Notes under the pieces: generated by a model | Database searches by the model: none | What the model saw: the letters and a program-made list of their open reading frames with translations, nothing else | What the model was told of the DNA's origin: nothing | In this document: piece by piece, positions 2 to 6,010 of the stretch | Layout: every line of letters begins with the position of its first letter | Numbering within the stretch: the stretch's first letter is position 1 | Source of the DNA: Candidatus Absconditicoccus praedator | GTDB taxonomy: Bacteria; Patescibacteriota; Gracilibacteria; Absconditabacterales; Absconditicoccaceae | NCBI RefSeq assembly: GCF_021057185.1 | Contig: NZ_CP054059.1 | Coordinates: forward strand, 930,001 to 962,000 | Length of the DNA: 32,000 nucleotides | Reading direction: 5' to 3' | Translations under genes and position numbers: made by a program

Positions 2-382
2 AATTTGACTGATTTTGTTGCTAGACTCAAACAATACTATCAATTTACCAAAGAAGACGGAGATCTGCCAGATTGGATGTACTACAAACCACAAACAAAT
101 CAAACCGGACTAGAATTTTTGGAAGAACTTTTTGATAAAATTGATGAAGAATTATCCGAAGATTTCAAAACTTGATTTGATCAAGCTTCACCAATTACTA
201 TTTCACAAGCAAAAGATGATTTTGAAGAATGGAAACAATGACTTAGATGAGAAGATTGGGAAGTATATATGGAAAAAAGAAGAAATATGTCTAGATTGAT
301 CAATTATATGAAAAAGTCGTTGATGATGACAGGAATGACCGGCTTTGAAGTAAGAGTTAATCTGCACGAGGACGAAGACTAA
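2..382 (+). CDS. hypothetical protein, C-terminal part (5' end outside window)
   Basis: Frame open from the window edge to TAA 380-382 with TGA=Gly (3 in-frame TGA). Reads ...DLPDWMYYKPQTNQTGLEFLEELFDKIDEEL...GFEVRVNLHEDED*. Followed by a hairpin + T-run terminator. No family recognised. Confidence 0.55.
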
Positions 383-401
383 AAATTTCATCTATCAACT
401 C

Positions 402-437
402 AAAAACCAGCTTCTATAAACAGGAGCTGGTTTTTTT
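402..437 (+). terminator. Rho-independent terminator
   Basis: Stem CCAGCT (407-412) / AGCTGG (425-430), followed by T7 run 431-437, directly after the stop at 382. Confidence 0.7.
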
Positions 438-474
438 GATTCCCCAAAAAATTAATAAGTAATTGATAATGTCT

Positions 475-585
475 ACCCCTCCAAAAGATTGTAACAAAGT
501 TGAAGAGGGATACCCCTCCAAAAGATTGTAACAAAGTTGAAGAGGGTCACCCCTCCAAAAGATTGTAACAAAGTTGAAGAGGGTA
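475..585. repeat. three near-identical tandem 37-bp units (ACCCCTCCAAAAGATTGTAACAAAGTTGAAGAGGGTn)
   Basis: Units at 475-511, 512-548 and 549-585 differ only at the junction bases. Each has complementary outer arms (ACCC-C-TC / GAGGGT) around a core TTGT-A-ACAA palindrome. A possible degenerate unit lies at 441-474. Confidence 0.9.
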
Positions 586-586
586 G

Positions 587-1872
587 CCCTAGTCTTGTCC
601 GAAACATTGATTTTATTATAAAAAAAGCTATAAGTATAGCATTTAAAATAATAAAATATATTTAAATATGGAAGGAATTAATGTAAAACAGATATTAGAA
701 ATAATACCTGATGAATTTATAGAAAAATTAGAAAAAAACTGTAATATAAATCATCAAGTTAAAAAAATGAGTTGAAAGGTAATGTTTAAACTGTTATTAA
801 TGTGAATATTAGATTGAGATAATTTAACACAAAGAACATTAGCATCAATATATAACAGTCCTGAATTTACTCAATATGCAGATAAATGAGAACAACAAAC
901 AAGACATACAACTATAAGTGATAGACTTATAAACATGGATTATAAATTCTTTGAGAAATTGTTTGAAGAAATAAGTAAAAAGTTTGAAAAAGTATTAAAA
1001 ATATGAGCAACAAAAATGAAGGTGGTGCTAAAGAGATTTGATTCTACATTAGTTTGAATATCAGAAAAACTACTTAAGTTTTGAATAAAAGCATGAAGTC
1101 CAGATGAAAGACATATAAAATTTACAGTCTGATTAAAGTGATTGTTGCCAAATAAAGTTTCAGTTTATGAAGAGCAAAAAGCAAGTAGTGAAGATGTAGC
1201 ATTATGAGAAACTATTTTACAAGAGACAACATCTAAAAATCAAATATTATTATTTGATAGATGAGTTCAAAAAAGAGAAACTTATTCAAAGCTAATAGAT
1301 AAAAATACAAATTTTGTAAGTAGATTAAGACAAAATACTAAGTATCAAGTTATAAGACAAAATAAAGAAGTAGAATGAATAAAAGTATGAAATTTAGTGT
1401 TAGAATGTGATGAAATAGTAAAATTATATTGAAAATGATGAGATATATTAGAAAAAGAATTAAGATTAATAAAAGCAATAAATCAAAAAAATGAAGTATT
1501 TTTATTTATAACAAATATGTATAATTTCACAGCAGAAGAAATAACAGAATTTTATGCAAGGAGATGGGATATAGAAGTATTTTTTAGATTTATAAAACAA
1601 GAATTTTGATTTAGTCATTTTGTATCAAGATCAAAGAATTGAATAATGAATATGCTATATATGACACTAATAACATCAATACTTGTAATAGTATATAAAT
1701 CAAAAAACAGTATAAAATCCTACAAAGAAGCTAAAAGAAGATTTATTGCTGAATTAGATGAATTAATTTTAATTGAGCTAGCAATAGCAATCTGAGGAGA
1801 TGTTGATCTTCTTAAAAAGAAATATTTAAATTATTATAAATACTCTTAATAAGGTTTCGGACAAGACTGGGG
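587..1872 (+). mobile_element. IS4-family insertion sequence (single DDE transposase gene, 19-bp terminal inverted repeats)
   Basis: Left end CCCTAGTCTTGTCCGAAAC (587-605). Right end GTTTCGGACAAGACTGGGG (1854-1872) is its reverse complement with 1 mismatch. The ends enclose one transposase ORF and are flanked on both sides by the same 37-bp repeat family in the same orientation. No clear target-site duplication seen. Confidence 0.85.
668..1849 (+). CDS. IS4-family DDE transposase (393 aa)
   Basis: ATG 668 to TAA 1847-1849, length 1182 nt (a multiple of 3), roughly 20 in-frame TGA read as Gly. Contains the IS4 signature Y-x2-R-x3-E-x6-K in ...EEITEFYARRWDIEVFFRFIKQEFGFSHF.... Confidence 0.85.
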
Positions 1873-1873
1873 T

Positions 1874-2020
1874 CACCCCTCCAAAAGATTGTAACAAACT
1901 TGAAGAGTACCCCCACTCCTAAATATTGTAACAAAAGGGATGGAGTACCCCACTCCAAAAGTTAGTAACAAAAAGGATGGAGTATTCCATTATTATGGTT
2001 TGTTACCAAAAGAATGGAAT
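1874..2020. repeat. four diverged units of the same 37-bp repeat family
   Basis: Units at about 1874-1908, 1909-1946, 1947-1983 and 1984-2020. The core TTGTAACAA / TAGTAACAA is retained and is roughly inverted (TTGTTACC) in the last unit. Outer arms differ but stay complementary: CTC/GAG, ACTCC/GGAGT (twice), ATTCCATT/AATGGAAT. Confidence 0.8.
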
Positions 2021-2045
2021 CTTTTCGTGCCCGGGCGCGGAAAGG

Positions 2046-2073
2046 TTGATTTTTACTTTTCTAGAATTATACT
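2046..2073 (+). promoter_or_regulatory. sigma70-like promoter candidate for the 2111 operon
   Basis: TTGATT (2046-2051), 16-nt spacer, TATACT (2068-2073), about 40 nt upstream of ATG 2111. Confidence 0.4.
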
Positions 2074-2110: not shown

Positions 2111-2971
2111 ATGGTTAAATTTTTGTGACTTAGTTTTGCCTGGATTTGTAGTTTTATGATTTTCTATATTTCTTTTTTGTTTTGAGATGATCTATCAGAG
2201 GAAATTGTGTACGACTTTATTGATCAGGTAGATGATTATGAGTTTTTTTATGATATAGATTTCCAAGTTGATTATGATATTAGTTGAACTTTTTTTGAAA
2301 AATTTAGTAGTGATGGAGACTGATACTCATACGAGTTTGGTTTGAATATTGATCTGCCAGAGGAAGTTGATGATGGCTTGATACCATTTGATTCAAATAT
2401 GAACTGAACAGTTAATTTTTACAATAATGCCAAAATAGATAATTTTCATATTAATATTTGAGCAGGTGCCAATATCTCATGACAAACAGCAGTTTGATGA
2501 GAAGACCAAATTTTGATAACCTTTTTGCAAGATTGAGAAGAGGAGTTTAGAGAGATTTTTGATACTTCTGATATCAATTTGGATCTACTTTTTACAAGGT
2601 TTTTGCCCTATATGGAAATAGAAGAAGGTGAAGTATTGAATTTGTCTGTTTTTTCTCCTATGTCTTTGAGATCAAAAGAGTCTATGAAAAATAATGTTGC
2701 TATTGAAAAAAAAGAAGAATGAAAGTATTCTATATCTTCATGATTTATGGGGATAGATTATGAGACAGTAGTTCACTTTGAGGATAAAAATATGATTAAA
2801 AAAGAAACTCCTTTTTTTTCTTATACAAAATCTGATTGAGATGAGCTTGATGTTGATAATATCGATCAACCAGATGATACCAACGATACAGATGATATAG
2901 ATGACCAAGACCAAGATACTCAGGATTGAAGTGAAGATGATTTAGAATGTAAACTTATCTGACATGATTAG
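2111..2971 (+). CDS. hypothetical membrane-anchored/secreted acidic protein (286 aa)
   Basis: ATG 2111 to TAG 2969-2971 (861 nt) with TGA=Gly. N-terminal hydrophobic segment MVKFLGLSFAWICSFMIFYISFLF. Highly acidic C-terminus ...DQPDDTNDTDDIDDQDQDTQDGSEDD.... Overlaps the next gene by 8 nt. Confidence 0.6.
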
Positions 2972-3705: not shown

Positions 3706-5355
3706 ATGGAAAATCTTTTAATGAAATATTATTTTAAAACTTTGTTCTCAAGTATAAAAACTTTTGCAAAAGAAAAGCTTTTTTTCTTCATAGGTTGAAT
3801 AATACTTTTGTGAAGTTTTTGGATAATAATCTGAACAATTTGTTATATTTTTTTCAGTTACTTAATCAATAATTTTCCTTGAGGACATATTTTTGCTCCC
3901 AACTTGATCTCGTTTGTTGTATATATAATGTTTTTGGTTTTTGTCTTTTCTGGGTTTGTGGCAAGTATATCTACTTTGTACAAATCTAGAGAGATAAATT
4001 TTTTGATTTCTATGCCTTTTGAAAGCTATGAAATTTTTAGATACTGATTTTTGAAGATAGTATTTTTCTTGTTATTACCTGCATTGTTTTTGCTGTTGCC
4101 TATATTTTTTTCATATTGAATTGTTTCTGGGTATAGCATATTTTATTATTTGTTATCGTTGTTTGTAATTTTTGCGATGGTATATTTGGCTGTTTTCTTT
4201 TCTGTTGTTTTGTTTTTGTTGTTGTCTGCATTTGTTTTTTCATTTAAAAGAATATATATAAATTGATTTTTGTTGAGTGTTTTGGTGTTTATGCTGTTTT
4301 CTGCTTTGTTGGTGTTTTTCTCTGCTTATGAGAATATGACTGACCAAGAGACCTTTTTGGAGCAGTATATCCTTACATTTGATTATGAAAATATATTTCT
4401 TCCTTGGAACTGGCTAAATGCTATGTTTGTAAATTTTGTGCAGTGAAATTATTCTTTGTTTTTTAGTTGATTTTTGTTTACAGCTGTAAGTATTGTATTT
4501 TTTTATGCTCTTATATGATTTTTGTCACAAAAGTATTATTATCAAAGCAAAGAGAATTTTGCTATGTATAGTATTTTTCCTAAAAAGAAAACTGTAAGTT
4601 TGATCTCATTTTTTTGAAAAAATCCTAAAATAAATTTACTAAAAAAAGATTTTCTTTTGTATATGAAAGATCCTTCGTGGCTAAGTCAGTTTATGATATT
4701 TTTTGTACTTATATGAATAAGTGTGGTTGTGATAAATTCTATTACCCTTGAAGAGATAGATACTCCTATGACAGCTTCTATTATTACTTTGTCTACTTTG
4801 GCTCTTACCTGATTTATGATTTCTGCAACTGCTTTGAAAATTGTTTATCCAAATATATCAATAGAATGAAAATCTTTTTGGATACTTAGAACTATTCCAG
4901 TATGATTGAATTATATATATTTTTTGAAATTTATTTTCTTTGTGGTGTTTTTTGTTTTAGTAGGTTTGCTTATTAGCCAAGCTTATGCAAGTATAATTTG
5001 ATTTATAGATGTTGTGTATATATTTATTTTGTTGATGTTGTTGCCTTTGATATTTGTGGTTGTTAGCCTGTATTTTACTTTGTGAAATATATATCCAGAC
5101 TTTAATGAGACTAATCCTTCTCAGATAGCTACTTCTATGCCTGCTTTTGGAGCAGTAATTATTTCAAATATTTTTATAATAATTGTTTGTTTGCTTATTT
5201 ATTCCAAAGTTTTTAGTTATTATGAAAATGTACAAGAATGTGAAATTCTTTGATTATATTATTTTTGGGATGTTTTAGTTATTTTTTATCCTGTTTTGAT
5301 TTTGCTTTGAGTATTTATATCATGGATAGGGTATAGGCAGTTTATCAAGCTTTAG
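3706..5355 (+). CDS. large polytopic membrane protein, putative ABC-exporter permease partner (549 aa)
   Basis: I checked the frame codon by codon from ATG 3706 to TAG 5353-5355 and found only TGA in frame. Very hydrophobic F/L/I-rich sequence with many predicted TM segments. Starts 2 nt after the ABC ATPase stop. Confidence 0.75.
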
Positions 5356-6010
5356 AAGATGATTTGTATATTTCTATCATATTATAACAGCTTTCTGAAA
5401 GCAAGAAAAGTTGGTGTATACTTACAATATCAAAAAAGTTATCACCTGGATTTAATTTTTTGAAGTTGATTTTTATTGAATATCAGTATGATTTGCTTCA
5501 TGTCCGGTATTTAGGAAACAGTTTGTGATAGTTGAAATTTAAGTGTATTTGGTGTTTTCATCTTTCAAGAAGGTATATTTTTTGGGATTTGTAGTCTTGT
5601 TGTTTCAGGTACATATTGAAATGAGTATTGTGGGATAGTATATTTCTTATAAAACTAACTGTTTGTTCAAAATGAAAGTATTGTCATTTGAGGTTTTCTT
5701 GTAAAAATTTTTTGAATTCGTTATTGGTTTCCAAAAGTTCTTTGACGGTAGCTGTAATTCACCTGAACATACTTATTTGTGTGAAATAACCAAAAATATT
5801 TTGTTTTTCTTGGTTTTGATAGATTTCTTTTAAAAGTTTTTTAATTGTTTGTTCTTTTAGCGTAAAGCTTGTATTTTTTCATGTTTGTATTTTTAGGTCT
5901 TTTGCAAACTCTGATAAATCATTTTCTTTTATTATATCTTCAAGAAAAAGTCAAAGATACAAAAATCTATAATAAGACTGTATAAGATCAAGTGAGGACT
6001 TAATTTCCAT
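5342..6010 (-). CDS. hypothetical protein with HEPN-like R-x4-H motif (222 aa)
   Basis: Reverse-strand ATG at 6010 to TAA (5342-5344), 669 nt, frame verified codon by codon. Reads MEIKSSLDLIQSYYRFLYLG...FEQTVSFIRNILSHNTHFNMYLKQ.... The RNILSH motif resembles the HEPN / Abi_2 catalytic motif. Convergent 14-nt overlap with the permease gene. Confidence 0.6.

Follow-up and report, generated by a model that had tools for sequence, protein, structure and literature searches.

A 32,000-nt stretch of the genome of Candidatus Absconditicoccus praedator (contig NZ_CP054059.1, positions 930,001 to 962,000; the whole stretch is called the window here) carries near its left end a spacer-less array of 37-bp hairpin units next to a gene of the P0008 protein family. 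Our best guess is that this array represents the non-coding half of a conserved two-part module of Absconditabacteria, the protein half being the helical P0008-family protein of about 200 aa. We favor the reading that the array is a transcribed hairpin-RNA array working together with this adjacent protein, to which we assign a probability of roughly 0.35. The reading starts from what can be directly seen at the locus and in its relatives: the anatomy of the array, the later arrival of an insertion sequence (IS) within it, its linkage to and co-orientation with the family gene in six lineages, the complementarity of the unit arms through sequence turnover, and the terminators bracketing the array. 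Absconditabacteria are predators belonging to the candidate phyla radiation (CPR) and use genetic code 25.

The array in the window consists of seven units at 475-589 and 1870-2020 with the IS between them, all head-to-tail and directly abutting (Table 1). Tandem Repeats Finder (TRF) reported a period of 37 both at 474-590, where the first three units are near-identical (3.2 copies, 95% matches, score 209), and at 1879-1984, where U4 to U6 have diverged (2.9 copies, 81% matches, score 126). With up to three mismatches allowed, the 17-mer core of the units occurs six times in the array and nine times across the 32-kb window, against 0.99 occurrences expected. The core starts are spaced by 37, 37, 1326, 37, and 37; because 1326 is the sum of 37, the 1280 bp of the IS, and the 9 bp of its target duplication, the phase of the array is strictly kept through the IS. 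The arm pairs among U4 to U7 are CTC/GAG(T), ACTCC/GGAGT, ACTCCA/TGGAGT, and ATTCCATT/AATGGAAT. A preliminary description of this DNA, made from its letters alone, had proposed hairpin units in a strict 37-bp phase, which the TRF periods and the core spacing bear out, arms that differ yet stay complementary, of which the pairs listed are indeed present, and an approximately inverted core in the last unit, which we likewise find at 1984-2020. A further degenerate unit that it suspected at 441-474 did not hold up, since 438-474 agrees with a unit at just 18 of 37 positions and is better regarded as a leader. As for its remark that it recognized no described repeat family here, the RNA side agrees, as no RNA family in Rfam matched the array. 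The other 30 kb of the window yielded no further units, and a scan of metagenome and viral collections for additional copies returned chance matches only.

The entire unit is dyad-symmetric (ACAA-AG-TT-GAA-GAGGG-TCAC-CCCTC-CAA-AA-GA-TTGT), and repeating such a unit in tandem gives two dyad centers per period. The arms can therefore pair equally well around the core or across the junction of adjacent units. When read across the junction, TTGT-A-ACAA is simply the seam joining consecutive hairpins; the folding energy of U1 was -9.9 kcal/mol in the junction reading and -8.4 kcal/mol in the within-unit reading. The register of the apical stem drifts among the units, with left/right spacers of 7/7, 6/5, and 5/9 nt, suggesting that the fold is not rigidly conserved. 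Against shuffled sequences, the RNA fold z-scores were -4.4 (plus strand) and -6.1 (minus strand) for the 475-589 block and -2.5 and -3.9, respectively, for the 1870-2020 block, and the DNA fold z-scores of the array ranged from -2.8 to -3.6. The copy number varies from seven units in the window to four in the related locus L087 and three to seven elsewhere, and it alters through duplication and loss of units.

The element dividing the array is an IS, as had been recognized in the preliminary description, and belongs to the IS4 family. Its transposase is of the IS4-type DDE class (NF033592, 166 bits with a cut-off of 115; DDE_Tnp_1 match), its terminal inverted repeats TAGTCTTGTCCGAAAC and CAGTCTTGTCCGAAAC match at 15 of 16 positions, and its 9-bp target duplication, GGGTAGCCC on the left and GGGTCACCC on the right (7/9 identical), lies within the 9-12 bp of that family. 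What was duplicated is the 9-mer that forms the apex of hairpin 3 (GGG-TCA-CCC). The IS is a secondary, later insertion into this apex and not a part of the array. An IS-free allele with the empty site is present in L087, and IS-free arrays occur in L087, L150, and L153, so that the units are not confined to the flanks of this IS family; such confinement is what the preliminary description had named as fatal to its proposal. We also ruled out that the units derive from the IS ends, which have no similarity to them (shuffle test, p~0.4). The two copies of the duplication differ at two of nine positions, suggesting that the insertion was not very recent. The 9-mer that this IS4-family element targeted at a hairpin apex, GGGTCACCC, is rich in GC and nearly palindromic, and it recalls the symmetric 9-bp targets of IS10. 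The read-based assembly L141 breaks exactly at the IS end, which suggests that the IS is multicopy. We rejected L141 as an independent strain because its 100% identity over 11.1 kb makes it the same genome; its apparent 95% protein identity stems from a translation in which TGA gave W and not G.

We compared six P0008-family lineages, namely the window, L147, L148/L149, L150, L153, and L154-L156. In six of six, a tandem array with a 37-40-nt period adjoins the family gene on the strand of the gene, which answers in the affirmative the earlier question of whether the copies neighbor the same gene. The arrays occurred upstream as well as downstream of family genes. In L147 (87% protein identity), a LexA-like gene is followed by seven units of 37 nt (TRF score 245) and a promoter-like site, with a U-run hairpin between this site and the family gene; L148/L149 (79% identity) have three units upstream of the gene. 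None of L147-149 has an array downstream of the P0008 homologue. L150 contains the last codons of a P0008-like gene, T1, the leader, four diverged units in 37-nt phase, a promoter-like site (11/12), and then a P0008-like gene. Even in L153, with only 42% identity, the gene is followed by a terminator and about four units at 38-40 nt containing AACCTCCAAAACTTTGTAAC...GGAGGAT, a layout and motif as in the window. L154-L156 (37% identity) have at least 2.5 units with a period of 38, 94% identity, and arms CATACCT/AGGTATG, in the order units, GC-rich terminator, one more unit, promoter-like site, U-run hairpin, and gene. The array is followed by a terminal-unit hairpin with a U-run or by a GC-rich terminator in L148/L149, L153, and L154. 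A 5' motif shared by the units clusters solely beside family genes, always on the gene strand; it is essentially absent from the rest of the window and from about 37 kb of control loci lacking the gene, where three isolated minus-strand matches were found.

The sequences of the units fall into at least three types among these lineages, while the 37-40-nt period, the co-orientation with the gene, and the complementarity of the arms persist. Six different complementary arm pairs occupy equivalent positions, and the mean longest Watson-Crick run was 5.3 for cognate arms versus 4.1 for non-cognate arms (permutation p=0.003), extending to the related loci what had been noticed in the window. Most arrays of these lineages fold significantly better than shuffled controls, with z-scores of -3 to -6. 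Because the variable flanks stay complementary around a conserved core, a hairpin in RNA or single-stranded DNA is favored over an operator in double-stranded DNA (dsDNA).

Intrinsic terminators bracket the array. The bidirectional terminator T1, which follows the family gene, folds with z-scores of -6.3 (plus strand) and -2.7 (minus strand); a T1-related terminator follows family members in L147-L149, L153, and L154. At the other end, T2, a strong terminator on the plus strand, scored 13 pairs in the terminator scan and folds together with U7 at z = -3.5; this GC-rich palindrome is absent from the preliminary account. A T2-like terminator, CCCCGGGC...GCCCGGGG-TTTT, follows the L154 array. The bracketing terminators make an independent or read-through transcript plausible, and their position at the array ends implies plus-strand transcription. 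The proposal that the array forms an independent transcription unit between a terminator at 402-437 and a promoter-like site at 2046-2073 is therefore sustained in part: the terminator stands and the unit is plausible, but the promoter-like site, at 9/12, is no better than chance would give (8 such sites versus an expected 12.3). The leader contains a -10-like GATAAT (465-470) 4 nt before unit 1, with no full sigma-70 match. The best promoter-like match near the array lies at 2066-2095 on the minus strand (TTAACT-18-TATAAT, 10/12), aimed into the array; it too is at the chance level for AT-rich DNA, by the same count of sites, and the RNA of that strand also folds best.

The gene at 2-382 encodes the candidate partner protein of the array, which the preliminary description had overlooked, as it had the target duplication of the IS; the local gene order is UFX83356, IS transposase, and UFX83358. 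The P0008 family, with eight representatives among 1.84 billion clusters, comprises helical proteins of about 200 aa and has no match in Pfam, NCBIfam, or PADLOC. AlphaFold2 with an 11-sequence alignment produced an all-alpha model (pLDDT 87.4, pTM 0.61). Foldseek found nothing at E<=0.001 for this model in the PDB (copy of April 2026; best E=0.44, TM 0.22) or in BFVD, and the 50 best PDB matches listed include no Nop, Tas, Prp31, or IS110 entry, suggesting a fold that is neither Nop/Tas-like nor ToxN-like. The isoelectric points (pI) in the family range from 4.3 to 10.0. A. praedator has a second family member, UFX82600.1, which is annotated as 101 aa and shares 94% identity with the window gene's C-terminal half.

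The favored reading would work as follows. The array may be transcribed on the strand of the gene by read-through of T1, from a weak promoter in the conserved leader, or by both, and the transcript would end at the terminal hairpin U7 and the terminator T2. Each unit would then give a short hairpin presenting the conserved A-rich core. Such unit-length hairpins, once processed, might act together with the adjacent protein, as at type III toxin-antitoxin or TIGR-Tas loci, and might neutralize it, regulate it, or load onto it. Transcription, processing, and any contact between protein and RNA are what we infer here from the arrangement of the locus.

Several observations weigh against this reading. 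Before the window array, we found no convincing promoter, and T1, a strong terminator, separates it from the gene. The gene after the window array and T2 (g2111) is an unrelated one. Between array and gene, L147-L150 and L154 have a well-conserved promoter-like TTGAAA-N16/17-TATAAT or TATAAA, indicating that their arrays are not co-transcribed with the gene, unlike in canonical type III systems, and occupy the position of an upstream operator. Single-unit hairpins are weak in L150 (z-scores of -0.8 to -1.6), the arms of L147 barely pair, and neither strand is consistently favored in folding. Neither a nuclease-like fold nor a known RNA-binding one is present in the protein, and just two of its polar residues, D136 and K154, are nearly invariant, a pattern that speaks against an enzyme. 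Moreover, the comparison covers about six lineages, most of them on short metagenomic contigs.

Among known systems, type III toxin-antitoxins (ToxIN, CptIN, TenpIN) offer the closest layout for comparison of gene and repeats. Repeats of the antitoxin toxI are 31-62 nt long (mean 38) and present in 1.9-5.6 copies, the toxin averages 168 aa, and in one documented toxIN locus the gene precedes the array (PMC3401426). The window system resembles them in its spacer-less direct repeats of about 36-38 nt in few copies, its small protein gene (about 170-200 aa), its palindromic terminator, and a repeat sequence specific to the lineage. A small protein gene with adjacent repeats of 31-62 nt in 1.9 or more copies was found in the window, L147, L148/149, L150, L153, and L154. 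Type III loci run from promoter to repeats, palindromic terminator, and toxin gene. In L147-149 and L154, a U-run hairpin and the gene come after the repeats, but the promoter-like site intervenes, as it does between array and gene in most loci; the order in the window and L153 is gene, terminator, and repeats, for which the toxIN locus mentioned above is the one reported instance. The differences lie in the all-alpha protein, which has no similarity to the ToxN, CptN, or TenpN endoribonucleases (PADLOC, Pfam, and Foldseek against the PDB), and in the units, which are hairpin palindromes and not the known pseudoknots; any toxicity of P0008 is hypothetical. Membership in type III thus fails because of the protein. 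It is a tentative and rather doubtful proposition that the P0008 gene and its co-oriented 37-40-nt array constitute an undescribed protein-plus-repeat-RNA system restricted to Absconditabacteria, in which unit-length hairpin RNAs bind the helical protein. One possibility is a type III-like family of the toxin-antitoxin or abortive-infection kind, the fourth and with no structural relation to the others; another is a new ribonucleoprotein regulator.

The array might instead be a set of DNA-binding sites such as iterons or operators, where the P0008-family protein or another factor binds the dsDNA repeats as a dimer. Its role would be autoregulation of the adjacent promoter, or replication or partition of a small mobile cassette, like the iterons flanking P1- and F-type rep genes. 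We consider this rather unlikely. The position of the arrays speaks for it, as those of L147, L148/149, L150, and L154 end only 10-50 bp upstream of the conserved promoter-like site of the family gene and arrays occur on either side of family genes. So do the palindromic cores TTGTAACAA and, with one compensatory change, CTYCGCGCGRAG, the better conservation of the core than of the arms in L150, the basic pI of 9.3-10 of some members, and the difference in unit sequence between paralogues that cognate specificity predicts. However, recognition of dsDNA needs no flanks that vary and yet remain complementary, the L153 array lies in a convergent intergenic region without a promoter, and the window array follows its gene. 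No helix-turn-helix, ribbon-helix-helix, winged-helix, or ParB-like fold was detected by Pfam, NCBIfam, or Foldseek. A period of 37-38 bp corresponds to about 3.5 helical turns and would place successive sites on opposite faces of the helix. Iterons such as P1 incC/incA and F incB/incC differ in being 17-22 bp long and in helical phase, with winged-helix Rep proteins, and the window array has no replicon features and no change in GC skew. A replication origin or terminus was rejected for the lack of any GC-skew inflection in the window.

It is unlikely that the array is a hairpin insulator, or a cluster like the repetitive extragenic palindromes (REPs) and bacterial interspersed mosaic elements (BIMEs), traveling with a gene cassette as generic stem-loops with no specific protein partner. 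Such a cluster would serve as a multi-terminator, a 3'-end barrier, or cruciforms shielding a tightly controlled gene from read-through. Consistent with this role, each unit resembles an intrinsic terminator on the minus strand (7 such sites versus 0.3 expected), T1 and T2 flank the array, and the conserved 5'-untranslated-region (5'-UTR) hairpin and U-run at family genes suggest tight control. The fast sequence turnover with hairpins kept and the weakness of the L150 hairpins would also fit. The BIME-2/REP325 of E. coli is a described tandem cluster of intergenic palindromic units capable of forming hairpins or cruciforms (PMC4550694), and such clusters are transcribed, variable in copy number, and targets of ISs (PMC4550694, PMC2817692, PMC1525189), the window IS lying in a hairpin apex as reported for REPs (PMC1525189). 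The units are also imperfect extragenic palindromes of about 20-40 nt, as REPs are. Yet REPs occur in hundreds of copies in a genome, have alternating orientations within BIMEs, and go together with REP-associated tyrosine transposases (RAYTs), whereas the window has a single locus in 32 kb, with head-to-tail units at a 37-bp period tied to one gene family, no repeats in the control loci, and no Y1 (RAYT) transposase. A generic hairpin requires neither a 37-40-nt period nor core conservation within an array, and the consistent tie to one gene family would go unexplained.

Tandem hairpin arrays with the same period exist elsewhere. In many Lachnospiraceae genomes (Parablautia, strain 1XD21-87, and mouse-gut metagenome-assembled genomes), we noticed at least 10 dispersed loci per genome with 2-6 tandem units of the form ACAAACGCYGNCRCGC-TT-CGCGAGNCRGCTTATTGTA and GC-rich stems, sharing with the window the 37-nt period, the TTGTAACAAA seam, and the architecture of a hairpin between seams; the period and the 10-mer were imposed by the search pattern and do not in themselves demonstrate homology. 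The covariance model built on the Lachnospiraceae arrays does not recognize the window units (best 15.3 bits, E=0.24; others 9 bits, E to 5.8), so that homology is not supported and we treat the family as an analogue only. Among the matches listed, hairpin covariation was 0.143 versus 0.109 for shuffles, with 0 of 500 reaching it; 11 and 12 arrays lay in the two co-directional contexts, 11 in the convergent and one in the divergent, and about half started within ~10 nt of an upstream stop codon. These arrays have no Rfam match and are apparently an undescribed REP-like family, dispersed and with GC-rich stems, in contrast to the single window locus.

That the array is merely a neutral palindromic minisatellite, whose complementarity is maintained by intrastrand template switching or gene conversion between units instead of selection and whose linkage to the gene is hitch-hiking, seems to us very improbable. 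The variable copy number (7 in the window versus 4 in L087), the near-identity of U1-U3, which points to recent amplification, the tolerated IS insertion, the decayed hairpins of L150, and the unfixed register of the apical stem would all be expected of it. But the arrays persist beside family members sharing 37-42% protein identity with period and orientation conserved, and GC-rich arms are retained in a genome of 29% GC. The narrower reading as lineage-specific junk is overturned by the arrays upstream of the L147-149 genes and beside distant family members.

The least credible account is that the array encodes tigRNAs guiding a Tas (Nop-domain) protein. By definition, box C/D-type motifs flank a pair of variable spacers of 8-12 nt in TIGR-Tas arrays, in dual-repeat or stem-loop form (PMC12045711). 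The likeness lies in the unit of about 36-37 nt, the CPR host, arrays up- or downstream of a gene for a small helical protein, and a terminator at the array end (PMC12045711; 10.64898/2026.09.09.750476), and the stem-loop subtype has variable but palindromic stems. Membership fails on the protein, which has no Nop domain by Pfam and a confident model without a Nop-like fold or any Foldseek match at E<=0.001, and on the absence of dual variable spacers, the units within an array being near-identical or diverged copies of each other; a box C/D pattern flanking two such spacers does not fit the 22-23-nt interval between the arms. CRISPR was excluded because the units abut without unique spacers and the window has no Cas domains, and a coding repeat because 37 cannot be divided by 3 and TAA occurs in frame every third unit.

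A further element was observed at family genes: between the promoter-like site (TTGAAA-N17-TATAAT/TATAAA) and every P0008-family start codon lies a conserved 5'-UTR element with the stem ACTACCT/AGGTAGT or ACTGC/GCAGT, a loop often containing GCCGGCT, and a U-run after it. It has no Rfam match and, judged from its sequence, looks like an attenuator or small-RNA terminator. In L147, the gene at 2-334 lies directly upstream of the array, and about 20 nt, free of any terminator, separate its stop codon from the first unit; we take its product to be a LexA/S24-peptidase-like C-terminal domain, judging by eye from a GDSM-type motif.

A block made up of T1, the 37-nt leader, and some 9 nt from the end of the upstream ORF is ~99-100% identical among the window (371-474), L087 (1896-1998), and L150 (1755-1858), while the outer flanks of the three are unrelated and the other genes of L150 are ~69-77% identical to those of the window. 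Between L087 and L150, identity is 99.5% across 1,858 nt on the left flank, T1 and the leader included, versus 70.8% inside the array. The ~118-nt T1-leader block is either a recombination junction, as at the boundary of a mobile cassette, or a co-assembly chimera in L087; both fit. The body of the P0008 gene is replaced in L087 (1-1718) and L150 (2-1578) by a D12-class N6-adenine DNA methyltransferase with a 191-aa open reading frame (ORF) and a 61-aa membrane ORF, the methyltransferase and the 191-aa ORF being a possible restriction-modification pair. This methyltransferase region on the left flank suggests that the module is bordered by strain-variable DNA of a defense type.

The window (29% GC; genome of 1.13 Mb) is sensible only with TGA as a sense codon, as code 25 or 4 gives 76 ORFs of at least 100 aa (16,943 aa) and code 11 only 18 (2,317 aa). 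The preliminary description had rightly pointed to the SR1 group (Absconditabacteria). Downstream of the array, the product of g2111 is 286 aa long and very acidic, begins with a hydrophobic segment at its N-terminus, and has no family match and just three homologues in 5.8 billion proteins; g2111 and the start of an ABC transporter ATPase-permease pair overlap, and the g2111 homologue in the relative L142 has no array upstream. The rest of the window consists of housekeeping genes. A 222-aa ORF on the minus strand without a Pfam or NCBIfam match contains FIRNILSHNTH, which by eye resembles the R-x4-H (HEPN/Abi-like) motif.

Table 1. Features of the window and of related loci mentioned in the text
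Feature	Position	Strand	Remarks
P0008-family gene, 3' part (126 codons), cut by the window start	2-382	+	UFX83356.1, 202 aa in full; code 25 translation
T1, bidirectional intrinsic terminator of the P0008-family gene	402-437	both	14-bp stem between A-run and T-run
Leader between T1 and U1	438-474	+	identical in L087 and L150, where arrays and outer flanks differ
Unit U1	475-511	+	near-identical to U2 and U3, ACCCCTCCAAAAGATTGTAACAAAGTTGAAGAGGG
Unit U2	512-548	+	as U1
Unit U3	549-589	+	as U1
Left copy of target duplication	581-589		3' end of U3
IS4-family IS, 1280 bp	590-1869	+	transposase ORF 668-1849
Right copy of target duplication	1870-1878		
Unit U4	1875-1908	+	diverged
Unit U5	1915-1946	+	diverged
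Unit U6	1952-1983	+	diverged
Unit U7, terminal hairpin	1984-2020	+	16-nt arms, inverted core
T2, intrinsic terminator right after the array	2018-2057	+	GC-rich palindrome (2018-2047) centered on CCCGGG, then T tail GATTTTTAC
g2111	2111-2971		product 100% identical to UFX83358.1
222-aa ORF	5342-6010	-	
5'-UTR element, L147	697-752		
5'-UTR element, L148 and L149	~305-350		
5'-UTR element, L153	2515-2565		
5'-UTR element, L154	277-330		
Lachnospiraceae array, L055	670-780		example among L001-L120
Lachnospiraceae array, L116	7598-7790		example among L001-L120
Lachnospiraceae arrays, L118 and L066			examples among L001-L120

Modules of a protein and a tandem-repeat RNA have repeatedly proved to be defense or RNA-guided systems, as with CRISPR, type III toxin-antitoxins, and TIGR-Tas. 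The locus described here has such a layout, with a protein for which neither a relative nor a known fold could be detected, and its host is a CPR predator that can be cultivated, so that the proposed connection is directly testable. If the array proved instead a plain insulator or a set of DNA iterons, the locus would still illustrate the persistence and turnover of palindromic repeats beside one gene family. If the link between array and protein is functional, it would constitute a new protein-RNA recognition pair and provide a handle on gene control or defense in a barely characterized phylum.

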